The notes under the pieces: model-generated
What the model saw: only the letters and a program-made list of their open reading frames with translations
The model's database searches: none
Told to the model about the DNA's origin: nothing
Assembly (NCBI GenBank): GCA_013426015.1
Contig: CP058998.1
Span: 724,071 to 788,070, forward strand
Direction: 5' to 3'
DNA: 64,000 nt
Source of the DNA: Candidatus Fermentimicrarchaeum limneticum
GTDB taxonomy: Archaea; Micrarchaeota; Micrarchaeia; Burarchaeales; Fermentimicrarchaeaceae
Program-made: the position numbers and the translations under genes
In this document: in pieces, positions 45,556 through 63,408 of the stretch
How the letters are laid out: each line of letters opens with the position of its first letter
How positions within the stretch are numbered: the stretch's first letter is position 1

Positions 45556-45722
45556 TGGGGCCAGAGGGATTTGAACCCTCATTAACAGGTGTCTCATAAA
45601 GCATCTCATCCTTTGTCAATGCTCCAATTCTAAATCATCCCCGAAGGTCATTCCACCTGTAACAATGCTCCTCTACAAAAGGAACTGGAGCCTGTTGTTC
45701 TGCCAAGTTATACCATGGCCCC
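45556..45722 (-). tRNA. tRNA-Trp (anticodon CCA) with ~90-nt intron at or near the canonical position
   Basis: Hand-fold: acceptor GGGGCCA/TGGCCCC+A73, anticodon stem ACAGG/CCTGT with loop CTCCAG..., T-arm GAGGG-TTCAAAT-CCCTC; 167 nt precursor. Confidence 0.7.
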
Positions 45723-50929: not shown

Positions 50930-53900
50930 GTGAGTTTTGGAAAGGCTACAGCTCCTTTTAGCAAGTGCAGAGAAGGCTGTTAGTAGTGGACGGGCTCACG
51001 GATCGCTTACGCTTTCCATCTACACCCCCACTCTATCAACAGGATCTGCTATCCTGGCCTTGAACTGCCTCGTTTTGAGAATGGTTTCGACCTTAGATGC
51101 TTTCAGGTCTTATCCTTTGGCGCGTGGCTGCCCGGCGATGCTTGACACAACCGGTATACTAGAGGCGCCGGTTCCCCGTTCCTCTCGTACTCGGGGAGCC
51201 ATACTCTCAAGCAGTCAACACTCCTAGGAGATACTACCGAACTGTCTCGCGACGTTCTGAACCCAGCTCGTGTAAGTCTTTAATGGATGAACAACCCAAC
51301 CCTTGGTGGCTCCTGCACCACCAGGATGACTTAGGCCGACAGCGATGTACCAAACCGCAAGGTCGATATGTACTCTCGCCTGCGACGAGCCTGTTACCCC
51401 CGGGGTAGCTTGTCTGTCAGCTTGGACCCTCAACAAAAGGGATTCCAAGGTTCGTTAAGCCCCTCTTTCGAGTCTGAATCCCACGCTTTTAAGGATTCAG
51501 TCAGCCATGCATTTGTCTTTAACCCTTACCAGCGGATTTCTGACCCGCTTAAGCATAGCATTGGGCGCCCTTGTTTCCTTATCGAGGGCGTACCGCCCCA
51601 GCCAAACTATCCATCTGCCGATGTTCCCTTACAGGTGAGGAACACAGCAACTGAAGAGCAGTGTTTCACTTTCGCATTCATACCCCCCGCAAGGGGCATT
51701 TCGACGCTCCTGCTTACGCTGTGCAACAACCACCGTATTCCAACGACAGACTATAGTAAAGCTCCACGGGGTCTTCGTTTCCCCCTAGAAGTCCTCGGCA
51801 TCTTCACCGAGTAGTGAGTTCACCAGGTCCCAGGTAGGGACAGCGGGACGCTCGTTATGCCATTCATGCAAGCCACCAATTAAGCGGCGAGGTATTACGC
51901 TACCTTAAGAGGGTCAGAGTTACCCCCGCTCTTTGCTGGTGCTTTGCTCCATTGAACTGGAGTTTGACATACCAGTAGTGAGCAGGCATCGCCCCCTATA
52001 CTAAGCCTTTCGACTTTGCAGGGAGCTGTGTTTTTGATATACAGTCGACGTCCCCTTGTCACTGCGACCTGCGATTGCAGCTTGCGCCACAATTGCAGGC
52101 ATGGCTTCTTCCTAAGTTACGCCACTGGATTGCCGAGTTCCCTTACCTGAGTTTTCCTGACACGCCTTGGCTTTCTCTGCCAGCAGCACCTGTACTAGTT
52201 CTAGGTACGATCTCGCGGAATCGCTGCCAGCTTCCTTTTCACGGGCTCAAGGAATCAACGGAACCACCTTGCGGCGGCCTTCCCAGAGTTAGACTGCTTC
52301 TCCTCATAACGAGTCTCTGCAGTCCTGCAGAGGTTAGATGAGCTCTCGCTCACTCCACCTATCCCCAAGCGTCAGAAGTGGCCTTGTGTCACCACGTCTA
52401 CCCACGAGGCACTGGGATCTTAACCAGTTTCCCGTTTGCTCTCGAGTAATTAGCTGAGAGCTTAGGATCGGCTTACTCTTAACTGACGAACATTGTTAAG
52501 AAAACCGTGTGCTATCCGGCGTCCAGGATTCTCACCTGGATTCGCTGTTACTAACACCAAGATATTTATTTCTGACAGGTCCATTGGAGCTCACGCCCCA
52601 ACTTCTACCCAGCCAGAACACCCCCCTACCAGATGATGCTTGTGGCATCCTCCGGGGTCTCGGCACCTGACTTAGCCCCGGTAATCTTCGGAGCCTGCAC
52701 TCTCGACTGGTCCGCTGTTACGCGTTGTTTAAAGGATGGCTGCTTCTGAGCCTACCTTCCAGCTGTTTAAGAATGGGGACTCCTTTGTGATTAGCACTCA
52801 GTCAGGATTTAGGGGCCTTAACCTCGGTCTCGGTCGTTCCCGTCCCGGCACACCAGCTTACCCGGTGCGCCCGACTCCCATCTTCTATGGTGATTATGAA
52901 TTCGGAGTTTGAGAAGACAGTGGAGCCTTTCGGCTCCGTTCTGCCTGATCAGTGCTCTACCTCATAATCAACCTCTGATGGGGCTATCCTACAGGATACT
53001 TCGGGGGGGACCCGCTATCGCCAAGTTCGATAGGACTATCACCCCTACACGCAAGTCACCCGAGCAGATATACTAGCACCGGTTGCGGGCCTCCACCAAT
53101 CGGAGGATCGGCTTCGCCCTGCTCGCGTGTAGATCACATTGGCTTCGGGTCTGCAGGAAGTGATTCATGGCACTTTCGTACCACCTGCCTCACACCTTGC
53201 GGTGCTGCGCAGTCTCGCTTTCGCTCAGCCTTTCGGCTCACCACTTCCAGCAACTCCTTGGCTCTTGCTTCAAGAAGAACGATACAACCCTGCTCAATCT
53301 CCCGTCGCTTTATATATTTCTACATATCGCTTCTGGGAGACCGCATTCCTTTCGGGCTGTACCCTCTGTAGCCACTCAGTTTCAGGTTCTTTTAACTCCC
53401 CTTTCGGGGTGCTTTTCAGCGTTCGCTCGCGCTACTTTACGCTATCGGTCTCAGGTTATATTTAGAGTTGGGAGTTGTTGCTCCCGTGTTCGCGCCCAAT
53501 ACTCGATGGACGCTACTCTGCACATCCCCTCACCCTCCGCTTTTCGCATACGAGGCTGTCACTCTCTTTGGCAGCGCTTTCCAGTGCACTTCAGCTAGAC
53601 GGAAGGAGAATGGAATGAATCACATCTCCTGCAAGTTGCCCTGCAGGATTCGAATTGCCTCTGTGGGGCGTTCAATCGCCTTTACTGACCCCATACCAGT
53701 TGGTTTCTTTTCCTGGGGGTACTAAGATGTTTCAATTCCCCCCGTGCTCCTTCGCCTCTTTTGGAGGTGAATTATTCGGCAATCCCAGGTTCAATGGCTG
53801 CCTGCGCCTACCCTGGGCTTATCGCAGCTTGCTACGGCCTTCATCGCTACCTGAGCCAAGCCATCCCCTGAATGGCATACTCACTGCACTCGTTTTTGCC
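50930..53900 (-). rRNA. 23S ribosomal RNA (boundaries approximate, +/-50 nt)
   Basis: Minus strand contains AGUACGAGAGGAAC sarcin-ricin loop, CUGAAAGCAUCUAAG near 3' end, and 5'-region GGAUGGCUUGGC...GAUGAAGGCCGUAGCAAGCUGCGAUAAGCC. Confidence 0.9.
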
Positions 53901-53991: not shown

Positions 53992-54086
53992 TGGACTCGG
54001 CGAGATGTTCAGCAGTTTGGAAACTACTTTTGAACTCGCGGCCTCCTCCTCGCAAAGGAGGCGCTCTACCACTGAGCTACGAGCCC
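53992..54086 (-). tRNA. tRNA-Ala (anticodon UGC) in the 16S-23S spacer, with ~23-nt intron in the T-loop
   Basis: Hand-fold: acceptor GGGCUCG/CGAGUCC+A73, D-arm GCUC-AGUGGUA-GAGC, anticodon arm CCUCC-UUUGCGA-GGAGG, T-stem GCGAG...CUCGC with TTCAAA[insert]T loop; 95 nt. Confidence 0.75.
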
Positions 54087-54595
54087 ATCGGCTTCAAGAA
54101 CTATTAGGAGTGAGCGTATTGATGTTCGCTTACCTTGCACTCACACTTTTTCATTCTCGTATCATGGAACGAAAATTTAAGGAGGTGATCTATCCGCAGG
54201 TTCCCCTACGGATACCTTGTTACGACTTAGCCCCTCTCATGACGAATTAGCTCGACGAGATCCGAAGGGATCCCGCCTCACTAAAACTTCATTTGAGTGA
54301 CTTGACGGGCGGTGTGTGCAAGGAGCGGGGACGTATTCACCGCTCGATGTTGACAAGCGATTACTAGGGATTCCAGCTTCATGAGGGCGAGTTTCAGCCC
54401 TCAATCCGAACCTAGGCCGAGTTTGGGGATTAGCTCCTCCTCTCGGAGTGGCAACCCATTGTCTCGACCATTGTATGCCACGTGTAGCCCGGGAGATTCA
54501 GGGCATACTGACCTACCGTTGCCGTCTCCTTCCTCCTGTTTAACACAGGCAGTCCCAACAGAGTGCTTCATCTCCGGAGAGATGAATAGCAACTG

Positions 54596-55105
54596 TCAGC
54601 GACGGTCTCGCTCGTTTCCGGACCGCATGAGTGCTTTTTTTACTTCGGAGTGCTTCATAGAATCCTTGACAAAAACAATGAATTCCCTTGGAGTCATTAT
54701 TGCCAGCCTTCCTTTGATGAATCTGGTTCTGAAGCCCAGAAGCTCAAGTAGCATCTGGTCCTTGTACGAAGCACGCGCCAGGTAAGGCGTGTCCCCCTCT
54801 ACCCCGCCGCAGGAATCGAACATCCCTGCAACGTATGAGGAGGAGTATCTGTTCCTTTTCCTGAAAACATCTATTTGATTCTTCTCAGCTCCCTCAAAGA
54901 ATGTCCTGTACGCTGAATGATAGAAGTACACGTCCCTGTCAGTCATCTGTATCTTCTCTGGAGGAATCTTCAGCGTCTTCATTATTTCTTTCAGGAAAAT
55001 CTCCCTGATCTCTCCGCTGCCTCGTATTCCGATTCCACTGGGAACCCTCCTTCCTTTCCATAAACCTATTAGGTATGCCAGTTCAGGCGTCATTTTAATT
55101 CTCAT
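54596..55105 (-). CDS. LAGLIDADG-like homing endonuclease ORF encoded in the 16S rRNA intron (motif 1 degenerate)
   Basis: Two LAGLIDADG-type motifs (LAYLIGLWKG lacking acidic residues; YVAGMFDSCGGV); ORF 3' end runs ~22 nt into the downstream exon. Confidence 0.6.
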   Translation of the reverse strand: MRIKMTPELAYLIGLWKGRRVPSGIGIRGSGEIREIFLKEIMKTLKIPPEKIQMTDRDVYFYHSAYRTFFEGAEKNQIDVFRKRNRYSSSYVAGMFDSCGGVEGDTPYLARASYKDQMLLELLGFRTRFIKGRLAIMTPREFIVFVKDSMKHSEVKKALMRSGNERDRR

Positions 55106-55147
55106 TCTCTCACTCCAAAACGGATGCACTCATGCGATTTACCGGAC
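54618..55147 (-). mobile_element. 16S rRNA intron (archaeal bulge-helix-bulge type) carrying an endonuclease-like ORF
   Basis: Insertion between GGUUAAGUCCGG and AACGAGCGAGACC; flanks GCAUGAGUGC / GCACUCAUGC can pair; GUCCGG duplicated at both junctions. Confidence 0.8.
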
Positions 55148-55287
55148 TTAACCGGACACTTCACAGCACGAGCTGACGATGGCCATGCACCACCTCTCGG
55201 CTCGTCAGGTAAGATCTTCAGTCTGACCTTCATACTGCCGTCGCTCCCGGTGATATTCCCGGCGTTGAATCCAATTAAACCGCAGCA

Positions 55288-55330
<43 letters not shown>

Positions 55331-56415
55331 ACCTTGCGGCCGTACTCCCCAGGCGGCAGACTTAACACTTACGCTACGGCACTGCCACAGCACTAAGCTA
55401 TGGCAACACCACAGTCTGCATAATTTACTGCTAGGGCTACTCGGGTATCTAATCCGATTCGTTCTCCTAGCCTTCGTCCCTCACTGTCGGACGCGTTTTG
55501 GCCAAGCGCCTTCGCCACTGGGAGTCCTCACAGGATTAACGGATTTTACCCCTACCCCGTGAGTACTCTTGGCCTCCCCCGCTCCCAAGCCCGTCAGTAT
55601 TCTCTGCACTCCTTCAAGTTGAGCTTGAAGATTTCACAGAGAACTTAGCGGGCCAGCTACGGACTCTTTAAGCCCAATATTCGTGGATACCACTCGAGCT
55701 GCCGGTGTTACCGCGGCGGCTGTCACCGGTCTTGCCCAGCTCTTATTCCGCAAGCTCCTTAAGCTTACGAAAAGATGCTCGCGTGGAGCATCACTCAGAA
55801 TCCCCTCGTCACGCTTTCGCGCATTGCGAAGGTTTCGCGCCTGCTGCATCCCGTAGGACTGGAGCCCTTGTCTCAGTGCTCCTCTGGGGGCGCCAACTCC
55901 CATTGCCCCCACCGATTATCGGCTTGGTGGGCCGTTACCCCACCAACTACCTAATCGGAAGCAGTCTCATCCTAAGGCAGACATGGCTGCATTTCGCCAC
56001 GCTGTTTGGGCTATGAAGCTTTCCAGCATCCATAACCTATGTGGTATTAGCCTCAGTTTCCCGAGGTTATCCCCCTCCTTAGGGCAGATTGACCACTCGC
56101 TACTCAGCCGTATGCCACCCCTCCTTGCAGAAGGGGTAGACTTGCATGGCTTAGTCGAATTCTGATAGCAGTACCCTCCAGCAGGATCAACTGGAATTAG
56201 AGCACACTATTCTTCCGCAAGTTCGGCGAAAAGACACCACTATCGCTCACTTCTCCTGTTCTTGAAGCCAGAGTCAAATCCAAACAAGCTTGGATTTCCA
56301 TCGATATTATGCGCTATAGAGGAAGGGTATATCTCACAGCACGAAATAGAATTCGCGCTCCATTTACGCCGTAATCTACAGCGTCCGCACGGCGAAAGAA
56401 GATTATGCACTCTCT

Positions 56416-59202: not shown

Positions 59203-59817
59203 ATGAAATCTGAAGCAATAATAAACTATTACTTCCAAAATGAATCAGGTGGTTTGTTGAGGTTTCCGCCCATAATGCGCAATTTGAAGAGAGGTCCGCA
59301 GGTTGTGCTACCGAAGGATTTCGGGATGGTTGCCGCTTTCACAGGAATTGGCAAGAAAAGCACTGTTGTGGATGCAGGCACAGGAAGCGGGTTCCTTGCA
59401 ATAGCGCTTGGTAATATAGTAAAGAGCGTTGTCACCTATGAGAAGAGGGAGGACTTTGTGAAGCTTGCGGAGAGGAACATCAAGGCAAGCGGGTTGAGGA
59501 ATGTCAAAATAAAAAGGAAAGATGTCTTCAAGGGAATAAGTGAAAGGGATGTGGATTTGGTGACGCTGGACTTGGCAGATTCCGAGAAGGCCATCAGACA
59601 TGCAAAGAGAGCATTGAAGGATGGGGGGTATGCTGTTGGCTTCCTGCCAAACATGGAGCAGGTGAAGGAGTTTGTGAGGGAGCTGGAGAAGAACAAATTC
59701 TCAGAAGTTTTCACGATGGAATGCATAACAAGAGAAATTCTTGTCAGGGAACAGGGAGTGAGACCTGAGAACATGGGGCTGATGCACACGGTGTATCTTA
59801 CTTTCGGGAGAAAGTAG
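59203..59817 (+). CDS. trmI: SAM-dependent tRNA methyltransferase, TrmI-like (tRNA m1A)
   Basis: VVDAGTGSGFLAIAL SAM-binding motif; C-terminal ...RPENMGLMHTVYLTFGRK resembles TrmI/Gcd14. Confidence 0.65.
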   Translation: MKSEAIINYYFQNESGGLLRFPPIMRNLKRGPQVVLPKDFGMVAAFTGIGKKSTVVDAGTGSGFLAIALGNIVKSVVTYEKREDFVKLAERNIKASGLRNVKIKRKDVFKGISERDVDLVTLDLADSEKAIRHAKRALKDGGYAVGFLPNMEQVKEFVRELEKNKFSEVFTMECITREILVREQGVRPENMGLMHTVYLTFGRK

Positions 59818-60351
59818 TCAGATAAGCTTCTTCTCATAGACATTCTCATAAACCGGTCCTTTGGGAGTCAGGGTGCTCTTCTTGAGAAGAATCCTGTCAA
59901 CCGTGCAGTCTCCGAGTTCAGTCTCGGCGTTCGTCTCAAGGAATTCAATCAGCTTTGTTTTGTCTTTCAGGAATTTCACCCTCGCCAGCGTTATATGGGG
60001 CGAGAAATCTTCTTTCTTGAAACCAAGCCTTGCAAGCTCCCCTCCAAGTTGGTCGTGGATACTCTTCAGCTCAGGTGCGTCAACACCGACCCAGATAACT
60101 CGTATGTAATTCCTGTTGGGGAATGCCCCGGCACAGTTGCAGCTCATCTCAAACTTTCTGCAGTTCACCTTTTCCATTGCCTGGGTTACCTTGCCCTTCA
60201 TGGTGTCGTCTATCTCTCCTAGGAAGTGCATGGTTAGATGCAGGTTCTCCTTCTCAACAAGCTTCACTCCGTCAATGGAGAGCTGCTTCTGCAGTTCTGC
60301 CATCTTCTCCCTTAGCCGTTCGTCCACTTCAACTGCAATGAAAGTTCGCAT
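59818..60351 (-). CDS. thpR: RNA 2',3'-cyclic phosphodiesterase (2H phosphoesterase, ThpR/LigT family)
   Basis: Two H-x-T-x motifs (HLTMHFLG, PHITLARV); 177 aa from ATG 60351. Confidence 0.8.
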   Translation of the reverse strand: MRTFIAVEVDERLREKMAELQKQLSIDGVKLVEKENLHLTMHFLGEIDDTMKGKVTQAMEKVNCRKFEMSCNCAGAFPNRNYIRVIWVGVDAPELKSIHDQLGGELARLGFKKEDFSPHITLARVKFLKDKTKLIEFLETNAETELGDCTVDRILLKKSTLTPKGPVYENVYEKKLI

Positions 60352-60363
60352 ATGGTAATTTAA

Positions 60364-60939
60364 ATGAAAGCCAGATATAAGAGTTTTATGATTGTGATTG
60401 GCGTTGCAGGGCTGAGAGCAGCTGGCAAGAGCATTGCCAACGAAGTTGCAAAGGAGTTTGGGGTTAATTCGGTAGAAATGAGAAGCATAGTAGTTGACAT
60501 GATGAAGGAGAAGAGGATCGCGGTAACCAACAGGAGCCTTAGGGAATTCGCAGACGAATTGAGGAAGAAGGAAGGTTATGATGTTGTTGCGAGAAAGGTT
60601 ATTGAGAAGATCAAGAAGATGAATGAGAAGGCGCTTGTAGTGAACGGAATAAGAGGTTATGAGGAACTGAAGCGTTTCAGGGAGGCTTTCGGCGACAAGT
60701 TTATCCTCATAGGAGTTTTCGCTCCTCAGAAAATGAGATTTGAGAGGGTGATTAAGAGGAATCTGCCGGAGGATCCGAAGAGCTGGGAGGAGTTCGTGTG
60801 GGCTGACGAGAAGGAGCTGGGGTGGGGCACAGCGGACTCCTTCGCGTTCTCTGATCACATAATTGTGAATGCGGAGACGAAGGAGGAGATGAGGGAAGAG
60901 GTGCAAAAACTGCTGAAGAAGCTGCTTGCAAAAGGATAG
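60364..60939 (+). CDS. P-loop nucleotide kinase-like protein (archaeal dephospho-CoA kinase/UPF0200-like)
   Basis: Walker A GLRAAGKS; 191 aa; family assignment tentative. Confidence 0.55.
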   Translation: MKARYKSFMIVIGVAGLRAAGKSIANEVAKEFGVNSVEMRSIVVDMMKEKRIAVTNRSLREFADELRKKEGYDVVARKVIEKIKKMNEKALVVNGIRGYEELKRFREAFGDKFILIGVFAPQKMRFERVIKRNLPEDPKSWEEFVWADEKELGWGTADSFAFSDHIIVNAETKEEMREEVQKLLKKLLAKG

Positions 60940-60976
60940 ATTTTTATTGAACTTCTGAGATATCTGTGTGGTTAGA

Positions 60977-61816
60977 ATGAGAAAATTGTTTTGGGTGCTC
61001 ATCTTTGCGGCAGTGGCAGTTAACGCCACATACGTGAACATAAAGGAGCCCTTCCCATCAAGCGGTTTGGTTGAGAACAGCAGCATCTACATGGGCAAGG
61101 CGGCTCCTGGGCAGACGGTTTATATAGTTGCCGAGAGAGCAACGATAGACGCGGCTGGCGGGAGTATGATCTACATGGGGTGGGACAAGCTGGCGATTGA
61201 GGATTTGCCGGAAGGCTGGACCGCGGAGGACAGCCCGTGGTATGAGACCCCCATGAAGGCTAAGATAAGGATATCCCCTGACGCGAAGAACGGTACGAGA
61301 TATTATTTCAAGGCCAAGGCTGTGGATGAGGGGAACCTCAACGGCCTGGGAAATCTGACGATAAACGTTTCCATTGACGTGAGCGATGATGTTTTCAAGA
61401 TAGATGTCAGCCCGCCGGAAGTTGAAACGGGGGTTGGACAGCCGGCAATTTATTACATAGACATAGAGAACGAGGGGGCTGCAAGCGATACGTTCAGCAT
61501 CACCTCAAGAGGAGTGCCGGCATGGAAATTCAAGAAGGACGTATTCGTGCCGCATGCGATTGACGTCACTCTGCAGGCAAAGAAGACTGTTCCCTATGAG
61601 GTCGTGAGCAACGAGCAGAATGAGATGGACATATACATAAACGTTACATCCCTCTCAAGCGACCAGATAAGCAGGGAGGTTAGGGTGACGCTTAAAGCGA
61701 GACCCTCCCTGATTTCGGATTACAGGGCAACCGGCCATGGTTTGCTGGTGTTCCCGCTCATAGAGAGCCCTATATACTCGCTCATAGCGTTCTTCTCAAA
61801 TTCCTTCTTTAGGTAG
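60977..61816 (+). CDS. Secreted/cell-surface protein of unknown function with C-terminal membrane anchor
   Basis: N-terminal signal peptide (MRKLFWVLIFAAVAVNA), several N-x-S/T sequons, C-terminal hydrophobic segment. Confidence 0.5.
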   Translation: MRKLFWVLIFAAVAVNATYVNIKEPFPSSGLVENSSIYMGKAAPGQTVYIVAERATIDAAGGSMIYMGWDKLAIEDLPEGWTAEDSPWYETPMKAKIRISPDAKNGTRYYFKAKAVDEGNLNGLGNLTINVSIDVSDDVFKIDVSPPEVETGVGQPAIYYIDIENEGAASDTFSITSRGVPAWKFKKDVFVPHAIDVTLQAKKTVPYEVVSNEQNEMDIYINVTSLSSDQISREVRVTLKARPSLISDYRATGHGLLVFPLIESPIYSLIAFFSNSFFR

Positions 61817-61821
61817 AATGA

Positions 61822-63408
61822 ATGAAAAAACAAAACATGAGCGATAGTATTGAGAAGGCTAGCGAGGAGGTTGCACAACTCATTCTCAAAGACAGGATAA
61901 GAAACAGGATGGGGCTGTGGGATGCAAAGATTCGCGCCAGCGAGAAATACGGTATTGCTGGTGTGATACGAAATTCTGACGTACTGCGGTGCATACCTGA
62001 GGGAAAAAGGAGAAAGTTCGCTGAGCTTCTTAGAATACGACCGATGAGGACGATTTCTGGCGTGAATGTGATAGCAGTTATGACAAGGGGCGAGTGCCCT
62101 GGCAGGTGCATATACTGCCCGAGAGGGGAGAATGCGCCTAAGAGCTACACTGGCAGGGAGCCGGCTGCCATGAGGGCGATACAGAACGAGTATGATCCTT
62201 TGAGGCAGGTGGATTCCAGAGTGAGGCAACTCGAGGAGATAGGGCACAAGGTGAGCAAGTGCGAGCTCATCATAATGGGCGGGACGTTCAACTCCATGCC
62301 GCAGGAGTACCAGCAGTGGTTTGTCAAGAGATGTTTTGACGCACTGAACGGGGTTGAGTCAAAAACTCTTGAGGAAGCGCAGCTTGCAAACGAGAACGCC
62401 GTGAGGAGGATGGTCGGGCTGACGATAGAGACGAGGCCGGACTGGGCCGGAAGGAAGGAGGTTGACGAACTGCTGCGCTACGGAACAACAAGGATTGAGC
62501 TGGGTGTGCAGACGCTTGACGATGAGGTTTACAGGAAGGTGAAGAGAGGACACGGAGTGAAGGAGGTCGCTGAGGCGACAAGAGTATGCAAGGATTCCCT
62601 CCTGAAAGTCTTATACCACATGATGCCTGGCTTGTTTGCGGAGAAGAAGGACGATATTAGGAATTTCAAAACTCTTTTTGAGGATAGAAGGTTCATGCCT
62701 GACATGCTGAAGATATATCCCTGCCTTGTCATGGAGGGAACCGAGCTGCACAGACTGTGGAGGGATGGGAAGTTCAAACCATATTCAACAGAGGAAGCGG
62801 CGGAGGTAATTGCGGAAGCAATGAAATTCGTGCCACGCTATGTGAGAGTTATGAGGGTGCAGAGGGACATTCCCTCCCATCTGATTGCTGATGGAGTGAG
62901 GAAGAGCAACCTGAGACAACTGGTTGAACAGAAGCTGGTTAAGGATGGAAGAAGGTGCGAGTGCATACGCTGCAGGGAGATAGGCTACAGGATTATGAAG
63001 GATGGGATAGAACCTGAGTTGGACAGCATCAAGCTGAACAGGATGGATTACGATGCTTCCGAAGGGAAGGAAATCTTCCTAAGCTTTGATGAGATGAAGC
63101 ATGATGCGCTGCTGGGGTTACTGAGGCTGAGGATTCCGTCTGAGAAGACTCACAGGAAGGAACTGAAGGGAGCCGCAGGTGTTAGGGAGCTGCACGTTTA
63201 CGGGGAGATGCTGCCCGTTGGTGAGAAAAGGGTTAAGGAGTTCCAGCACATGGGTCTGGGAACGAAATTGCTGAAGGAAGCTGAAAAAATAGCAAAAGAG
63301 GAGTTCGACTGCAGGAAGCTTGCAGTCATAAGTGGAGTTGGGGCTAGGGAATACTACTTCAAGCTCGGGTATAAAAGGGATGGTCCCTACGTTTCAAAAA
63401 TGCTATAG
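61822..63408 (+). CDS. elp3: Elongator protein 3 homologue (radical-SAM + GNAT tRNA-modifying enzyme)
   Basis: Radical SAM CPGRCIYCP cluster motif; C-terminal GNAT domain; 528 aa. Confidence 0.9.
   Translation: MKKQNMSDSIEKASEEVAQLILKDRIRNRMGLWDAKIRASEKYGIAGVIRNSDVLRCIPEGKRRKFAELLRIRPMRTISGVNVIAVMTRGECPGRCIYCPRGENAPKSYTGREPAAMRAIQNEYDPLRQVDSRVRQLEEIGHKVSKCELIIMGGTFNSMPQEYQQWFVKRCFDALNGVESKTLEEAQLANENAVRRMVGLTIETRPDWAGRKEVDELLRYGTTRIELGVQTLDDEVYRKVKRGHGVKEVAEATRVCKDSLLKVLYHMMPGLFAEKKDDIRNFKTLFEDRRFMPDMLKIYPCLVMEGTELHRLWRDGKFKPYSTEEAAEVIAEAMKFVPRYVRVMRVQRDIPSHLIADGVRKSNLRQLVEQKLVKDGRRCECIRCREIGYRIMKDGIEPELDSIKLNRMDYDASEGKEIFLSFDEMKHDALLGLLRLRIPSEKTHRKELKGAAGVRELHVYGEMLPVGEKRVKEFQHMGLGTKLLKEAEKIAKEEFDCRKLAVISGVGAREYYFKLGYKRDGPYVSKML

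Follow-up and report, generated by a model that had tools for sequence, protein, structure and literature searches.

A 16S rRNA intron of Candidatus Fermentimicrarchaeum limneticum carries a conserved LAGLIDADG-fold protein that is probably not an active endonuclease

Archaeal ribosomal RNA (rRNA) introns of the bulge-helix-bulge (BHB) class that contain LAGLIDADG genes have long been known and serve as textbook examples of selfish elements, passing through invasion, fixation, decay and loss. Here we describe an insert of this kind that interrupts the 16S rRNA gene in Candidatus Fermentimicrarchaeum limneticum (Micrarchaeota, DPANN) and is located in a 64,000-nucleotide (nt) stretch of contig CP058998.1 (assembly GCA_013426015.1, positions 724,071 to 788,070), hereafter the window. 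As in the introns that encode I-DmoI (Desulfurococcus 23S) and I-Tsp061I and I-PogI (Thermoproteales 16S), the rRNA intron is defined by pairing between the exon-intron junctions. Unlike those introns, however, it has a Micrarchaeota host and a relaxed splicing motif without an outer helix, and it encodes a member of a protein family in which both catalytic acids are gone, which appears to be vertically inherited and which is also found outside introns. We consider it probable that the insert is a fixed and vertically inherited BHB-class intron carrying a domesticated, non-cleaving nucleic-acid-binding protein.

LAGLIDADG proteins that are not nucleases have been described in other systems. 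WhiA is not a nuclease, and T. maritima WhiA has Arg and Gly at the metal-binding positions (PMC3384342). Like WhiA/DUF199, the window protein has its metal-binding acids replaced (by Arg and Cys) and appears to be a conserved host gene, but it shares no detectable sequence relationship with that family, is archaeal and is coded inside an rRNA intron. With 169 amino acids (aa), no extra domain and no Pfam match, it falls outside WhiA/DUF199, and the likeness is structural only. The yeast group I maturases bI2 and bI3 (cited in PMC3384342) likewise represent intron-encoded LAGLIDADG proteins that were kept after loss or weakening of nuclease activity, whereas the window's intron would be spliced by proteins rather than as a ribozyme and homologues of its protein persist without the intron. 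BHB introns have been noted in Micrarchaeota rRNA genes (PMC6125680); our literature searches found neither insertion site 1101 in Micrarchaeota, nor the family-wide loss of both acids, nor the series of intron-borne, post-16S and free-standing genes described below.

All features of the locus lie on the minus strand of the window. The 16S rRNA gene including the intron (54180..56197; Rfam RF01959, 1417.5 bits, model positions 1-1478) is the first gene of an operon in which it is followed by tRNA-Ala(UGC) in the 16S-23S spacer (54004..54086) and by the 23S rRNA gene (50962..53892; Rfam). Its cmscan alignment to the Rfam model is continuous apart from a 525-nt unaligned block after model position 1033, in which one consensus position is replaced, giving a net insert of 524 nt. 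An initial annotation, made from the sequence alone, had proposed an rRNA intron of ~524 nt in this gene, near E. coli ~1090, between GGUUAAGUCCGG and AACGAGCGAGACC, with junctions that pair (GCAUGAGUGC / GCACUCAUGC) and a reading frame bearing LAYLIGLWKG and YVAGMFDSCGGV as its two LAGLIDADG motifs. All of these sequences are present on the minus strand, and the insert size agrees with the net value from Rfam, while the boundaries as literally quoted give 525 nt and a spliced 16S that is 1 nt shorter than the consensus.

Read in the RNA sense, the region runs ...GUGUCCGGUUAAGUCCGGUAAAUCGCAUGAGUGCAUCC...[open reading frame]...AAAAAGCACUCAUGCGGUCCGGAAACGAGCGAGACC... and, because UCCGG is repeated at both junctions, several boundary positions are possible and alignment alone cannot fix them. 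Combining the cmscan alignment with a structure-based cut and numbering on E. coli K-12 rrsH, we placed the end of exon 1 (55140..56197; ending ...GUUAAGUCCGGUA) at E. coli 1101, followed by the 524-nt intron (54616..55139; GC content 46%, compared with 55% in the exons) and exon 2 (54180..54615; starting ACGAGCGAGACC). The junction is thus 1101|1102, just 3' of helix 35 and in line with the region first proposed. Excision of 55139..54616 yields GUUAAGUCCGGUAACGAGCG, a sequence identical to that of L026 and L057, two Micrarchaeota 16S genes without the intron, and the predicted spliced 16S has the Rfam consensus length. When the site was compared with known archaeal 16S intron positions, as the initial annotation had suggested, the nearest catalogued locus was 1093, found in Thermoproteales and Desulfurococcales (Jay & Inskeep 2015, PMC4496867); it lies in the same helix-35 loop region, whereas the structure-defined junction of the window falls after 1101. 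This is the only intron in the window's 16S gene and the 23S gene has none, while related 16S genes contain up to five or six (L002:1103-4861; L034; L080) and exceed 3 kb.

At the core of the junction structure is a central helix H, formed by exonic CCGG (55142..55145), which in the mature rRNA supplies the 3' strand of helix 35, and intronic CCGG (54618..54621). On the 5' side, a UAA bulge (55139..55141) contains the predicted cut 55140|55139, and beyond it lies a 13-bp inner helix h' with both strands in the intron, AUCGCAUGAGUGC (55126..55138) in the 5' untranslated region of the intron and GCACUCAUGCGGU (54622..54634), which also codes for the residues ..ALMRS of the reading frame. On the 3' side, unpaired AAA (54615..54617) contains the predicted cut 54616|54615 and is not followed by a canonical outer helix. 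The 10 bp of junction pairing put forward in the initial annotation form part of the 13-bp helix, which lies wholly inside the intron. Six alignment-compatible splice positions within the UCCGG repeat were also examined by hand, and none fits a strict BHB register; the register that does fit uses CCGG as central helix, with cuts two nt further 3' than those positions.

Support for this structure came from folding and from covariation. The 87-nt junction substrate folds at -36.1 kcal/mol compared with -19.5 +/- 3.1 for shuffled sequences (z = -5.4), and the CCGG/CCGG pairing is present in the minimum free energy structure from RNAfold. In an alignment of 16 distinct junction constructs from related introns, this pairing is invariant except for one G-U (16/16 invariant or G-U), the 5' bulge is YAA in every relative and the 3' AAA is invariant. 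Standard pairs occupy 96.7% of cells over 17 pairs, compared with only 26-36% in a control with the partners slid by 1-3 columns; of the 13 pairs in the inner helix, 9 have changes on both sides (compensatory), and the observed covariation values were not reached in any of 500 shuffles. In two relatives (L058, L069) the register is shifted by 1 nt and the product is still correct, GUCCGGCAA|CGAGCG, and a product of correct length is also obtained from the much more distant 16S genes L079-L081.

In archaeal pre-tRNA splicing, cleavage follows the second bulge nucleotide. Measured against the strict hBHBh' motif, that is a 4-bp helix and two 3-nt bulges each enclosed by helices, the 5' half of the junction is canonical and the 3' half is not. 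Since the 3' site lacks a canonical outer helix, the motif is assigned to the relaxed HBh' class described in PMC3239211 rather than to strict hBHBh'. The sequence and its covariation thus indicate an archaeal BHB-class intron in relaxed HBh' form, so that the class named in the initial annotation stands while the motif is not the canonical one.

In the precursor, the exon CCGG, which is the future 3' strand of helix 35, would pair with the intron CCGG 520 nt downstream, and the 13-bp intron helix would stack beside this pairing. The host tRNA-splicing endonuclease would then cut two nt 3' of the 4-bp helix on both strands (55140|55139 and 54616|54615), and an RNA ligase would join the exons to give GUCCGGUA-ACGAGCG, freeing the 524-nt intron, which would probably be circularised with the expected circle junction ...GGUCCGGAA|AAUCGCAUG. 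We infer excision by the host endonuclease, ligation and circularisation. Relaxed motifs require a splicing endonuclease of broad specificity, and the host enzyme may be of this type, by analogy with ARMAN-2 (Micrarchaeota), whose epsilon2 endonuclease cleaves both relaxed and strict motifs and whose tRNA introns lie at position 59/60 (PMC3239211). The tRNA-Ala(UGC) gene of the operon itself contains a 23-nt T-loop intron at 59/60, the same position as the ARMAN-2 tRNA introns, with a strict hBHBh' motif (T-stem GCGAG/CUCGC, helix UUCA/UGAA, bulges AAA and CAU).

The only long open reading frame (ORF) of the insert (54596..55105; 169 aa plus stop) starts from ATG and is preceded by a Shine-Dalgarno-like GGAGUGA (55110..55116) that ends 4 nt before the AUG and is kept in the introns most closely related to this one. 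At 100% identity the encoded protein matches Sv326_0870 of Candidatus Fermentimicrarchaeum limneticum, which is encoded on a 1.18-Mb contig and annotated as hypothetical only. The ORF had been described as running ~22 nt into the exon; the overlap is 20 nt, stop included. Since the stop lies 20 nt into exon 2, the full ORF requires the unspliced precursor, translation of which would give the C-terminus ...MRSGNERDRR. A circularised intron would instead read ...MRSG|KSHECIRFGVRE, stopping at a UGA that overlaps the AUG, with the C-terminal peptide ...MRSGKSHECIRFGVRE. In every copy in the same register the stop codon occupies exon-2 nt 18-20 (UGA in UGACAGUUGC). Relatives with an ORF that stops within the intron (L043, L058, L069) have the UGA in UGACAGUUGC (or UAA) as well, and the three intron-less relatives, the only three to compare, lack it. 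The exon UGA may reflect selection or may be a feature of the clade.

Searches of Pfam, NCBIfam and the PDB (phmmer) with the single ORF sequence gave no useful match, and the window protein itself matches none of the curated Pfam LAGLIDADG_1/2/3 or Hom_end models, its link to them being transitive only. An AlphaFold2 model built with 35 homologues nevertheless had high confidence (predicted local distance difference test, pLDDT, 93.1; predicted template modelling score, pTM, 0.88) and depicts a two-domain LAGLIDADG-fold protein. Structure searches with Foldseek returned LAGLIDADG proteins only, including PI-PfuI (E 2e-6) and I-DmoI (E about 5e-5). A family profile gave weak matches in the PDB (E about 0.5), the top two being LAGLIDADG enzymes aligned on motif 2, and retrieved members of Pfam PF14528 (LAGLIDADG_3) at E 1e-13 to 1e-4. 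Searched against the full library of 1.84 billion proteins, the profile matched 118 clusters at E < 1e-10, and weaker matches carry GLWKADR...DGDG and match Pfam LAGLIDADG_3; by hhalign, the acid-less family and these canonical relatives are related with 99.5% probability. The modelled structure and the profile links to LAGLIDADG_3 members together establish the LAGLIDADG fold, as the initial annotation had supposed. The family proteins are basic, with a mean isoelectric point of about 9.

In LAGLIDADG endonucleases each motif needs an acid as its penultimate residue, as exemplified by D21 and E117 of I-DmoI (PMC3384342). Motif 1 of the window protein, LAYLIGLWKGRR (residues 9-20; 55046..55081), has Arg19 at the catalytic Asp position, and motif 2, YVAGMFDSCGG (residues 91-101; 54803..54835), has Cys99 at the catalytic Asp/Glu position. 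In the hhalign alignment, R19 is opposite the D of GLWKADR and C99 is opposite the second D of DGDG. The family profile likewise pairs AGlFDgcG with AGLFDAEG of PI-PfuI, so that Asp97 falls on position 6 of the motif and Cys99 on the penultimate one. The second motif, rated as good in the initial annotation, therefore lacks the decisive acid: its Asp97 is the residue at position 6, and the catalytic position is occupied by a non-acidic residue.

We surveyed these positions in 49 distinct locus-derived proteins and in 151 aligned homologues and cluster representatives. Neither motif carries the penultimate acid, family-wide: the first catalytic position is Arg, rarely C, A, N or V, and the second is variable (C, V, N, A, I, S, T, K). 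The lack of an acidic residue in motif 1 had been noted before, but the motif is not decaying and represents a strongly conserved variant, AYxxGLW[K/R]xRR. Conserved residues across the family comprise W16, K/R17, R19, G24, G26, F61, H63, Y66, R67, N85, D97 and D116, with Asp97 invariant and Asp116 nearly so. In addition, the Lys in the STAKG loop of the relatives, possibly the conserved catalytic Lys, is replaced by Ile or Gly in the acid-less family (hhalign). Because both metal-binding carboxylates are replaced, DNA cleavage by the known LAGLIDADG mechanism would be impossible, and endonuclease activity of the protein is improbable, in agreement with the earlier suspicion that it may be inactive.

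Three canonical relatives, P0182, P0189 and P0195, are encoded in 16S genes of distant archaea (L079:2217-4149, L080:779-4143 and L081:792-2442) with ~70-85% identity to the window's 16S. These proteins have Asp at both positions (GLWKADR, DGDG) and a Pfam match, in contrast to the Arg and Cys of the window protein, which has no Pfam match. Their introns occupy the same helix-35 site and share the layout of the window's intron, with 4 bp in the central helix, AAA as the bulge and 13 bp in the inner helix, and the 5' UAAAUCGC is common to both. Since canonical relatives sit at the same site with the same layout, the acid-less family would therefore derive from endonucleases of this site. The cluster names of the canonical relatives say 'intein/homing endonuclease' only, and phmmer found nothing informative in the PDB for one of them. 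Further LAGLIDADG_3 ORFs occur in other introns of the L079-L081 16S genes, and the 23S of L079 scores best with the bacterial large subunit (LSU) model.

Searches with the protein family recovered 23 genome loci, all labelled Micrarchaeota or Micrarchaeia except one Bilamarchaeaceae metagenome-assembled genome and one 'uncultured archaeon', together with 47 metagenome loci. In about 30 of the genome and metagenome loci the ORF lies at the same 16S site. A neighbour-joining tree resolved three groups, namely a large intron-borne clade, a post-16S clade and a large free-standing clade. In the post-16S clade (L004:2332-2983, L026:523-1528, L057:596-2200 and L076:55-950) the gene is located 177-856 nt downstream of a 16S gene without this intron, and the intron-borne L058 and L069 fall within this clade. 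TATA-like boxes precede the homologue in at least L004, L026 and L057, and that of L057 is placed within the spacer of the rRNA operon, between 16S and tRNA-Ala. In the free-standing clade the same uncharacterised gene of ~150 aa is found directly upstream in ~25 loci (L006-L014, L024, L048-L056, L062-L074), and a gene resembling threonyl-tRNA synthetase is found downstream in several. No copy of the upstream partner gene is present in the 64-kb window.

The ratio of nonsynonymous to synonymous substitution rates (dN/dS) is 0.10-0.34 for intron-borne copies over 148-152 codons, with the RNA-constrained tail excluded, which indicates that the gene is under purifying selection. No visibly degraded copy was found among the copies examined. 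Exactly one locus came from each of the 23 genome assemblies, and the distances between ORFs are correlated with those between the flanking exons (Mantel r 0.48, p 0.0008). On this sequence evidence the gene is conserved, single-copy and host-like rather than a decaying selfish nuclease; the decay implied by the initial annotation fits neither purifying selection nor the free-standing syntenic homologues. Several points weigh against our interpretation. The count of one locus per genome depends on one degenerate peptide pattern and on assemblies that are incomplete. The Mantel test uses only ~226 nt of flanking exon, and L002 is distorted in it by a neighbouring intron. A dN/dS below 1 is expected for an active homing endonuclease too, and some other nuclease activity may persist despite loss of the canonical acids, Asp97 and Asp116 being conserved. 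The upstream partner gene has no significant Pfam match. Lastly, RNAfold places the 3' cut site outside any canonical outer helix, in a 3x3 internal loop beside a weak, interrupted exon-exon helix.

In the interpretation we favour, that of a fixed intron with a domesticated gene, the gene would descend from canonical LAGLIDADG homing endonucleases of the same 16S site in other archaea. Both metal-binding carboxylates would have been replaced in this lineage while the gene was kept intact and inherited with its 16S, and the intron would now be a fixed carrier of the domesticated gene. The ancestral DNA target is disrupted in intron-bearing genomes and the intron RNA does not exist in intron-less ones, and the same residues are conserved in both; binding of the homing site, or an intron-specific maturase role, is therefore unlikely as the sole function. 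We infer from these patterns that the protein lacks DNA cleavage and serves its host as a non-cleaving nucleic-acid binder. More tentatively, and with somewhat less than even confidence, we propose that a disarmed helix-35 endonuclease became a conserved cellular factor of this Micrarchaeota clade, and that the intron persists on account of this gene. In the branch that still holds the gene inside the rRNA intron, a host protein would then have its messenger, perhaps circular, provided directly by transcription and splicing of the 16S precursor; in other branches the gene would have been relocated to a point shortly behind 16S or to a conserved two-gene cassette elsewhere.

An alternative is that the protein acts as a maturase-like RNA chaperone, which binds the pre-rRNA and helps the distant junctions to pair against the native helix-35 hairpin, thereby enabling the splicing endonuclease. 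Its basic character would suit this role, as would the choice that the exon CCGG faces between its helix-35 partner and the intron CCGG 520 nt away, and the gene is linked to 16S in two of its three contexts; maturases without endonuclease activity also have a precedent (PMC3384342). The same conserved residues are nonetheless retained in homologues beside 16S genes that lack this intron (L026, L057, L004), and homologues are also found far from any rRNA gene. In addition, no requirement for maturases is known for BHB introns. We consider this explanation unlikely.

A further possibility is that the intron is still mobile, with the ORF encoding either a functional homing endonuclease or nickase with a non-canonical active site, or one that was inactivated very recently and is decaying; the intron-less homing target in 16S rDNA would be GTTAAGTCCGGTAACGAGCGAGACC with its flanks. 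The intact ORF with its conserved Shine-Dalgarno-like site, the close canonical relatives at the same 16S site, the conservation of Asp97 and Asp116, and a dN/dS below 1, which is compatible with selection for homing, are all in keeping with mobility. However, virtually the entire family has non-acidic residues at both metal-binding positions, one of which varies freely, and the position of the possible catalytic Lys is Ile or Gly. The copies also co-diverge with their 16S genes, none of those examined is visibly degraded, and single-copy syntenic free-standing homologues are not expected of a selfish nuclease. We therefore regard continued mobility as quite improbable.

The insert might also remain in the mature rRNA, or its removal might leave the 16S in fragments, as with some bacterial intervening sequences, and the non-canonical 3' site could be taken to favour this. 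Against it, the predicted cuts recover the universally conserved sequence with single-nucleotide precision, across several diverged lineages and two different registers, and the site lies within the conserved helix 35-36 core, which makes such an outcome very improbable. A self-splicing group I or group II intron can be dismissed almost entirely: although group I introns are found in Micrarchaeota rRNA at LSU 1923, 1931 and 2593 and at small subunit 1498 (PMC6125680), no Rfam group I/II intron model matches 54500..55250 even at E <= 10, there is no room for a ribozyme core because the ORF fills the intron, running through its 3' end and leaving only 34 nt, 5' of the start codon, and the junction has BHB-type geometry with covariation.

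Elsewhere in the window, a putative tRNA of 167 nt (45556..45722, minus strand) was detected by Rfam and missed by ARAGORN, and has an apparent anticodon CCA (Trp) and an insert of ~98 nt in the anticodon loop, in which a search for C/D-box RNA gave no significant match. Upstream of the rRNA operon, an RNA-modification and RNA-repair neighbourhood (59203..63408) includes genes for a GCD14-like tRNA methyltransferase (59203..59817, plus strand), a 422-aa protein that combines a LigT-like 2H phosphoesterase domain with an uncharacterised N-terminal half of ~250 aa (59818..61086, minus strand), and an ELP3-like radical-SAM/GNAT protein (61822..63408, plus strand).

Taken together, our results describe a family that contrasts with the selfish cycle of archaeal rRNA introns, in that all of its members lack the catalytic acids and yet remain intact, track their hosts and occur as ordinary chromosomal genes in sister lineages. 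The family may offer a natural series from active endonuclease through disarmed intron-borne gene to free-standing host gene, and would represent an archaeal counterpart of WhiA or of the organellar maturases for which canonical, ancestor-like forms are still found at the same site for comparison. The additional 524 nt in a conserved stretch of 16S could plausibly affect the recovery, binning and annotation of Micrarchaeota 16S genes. In addition, translation of the protein from the rRNA precursor or the excised circle, if it occurs, would couple the synthesis of a host protein to that of ribosomes.

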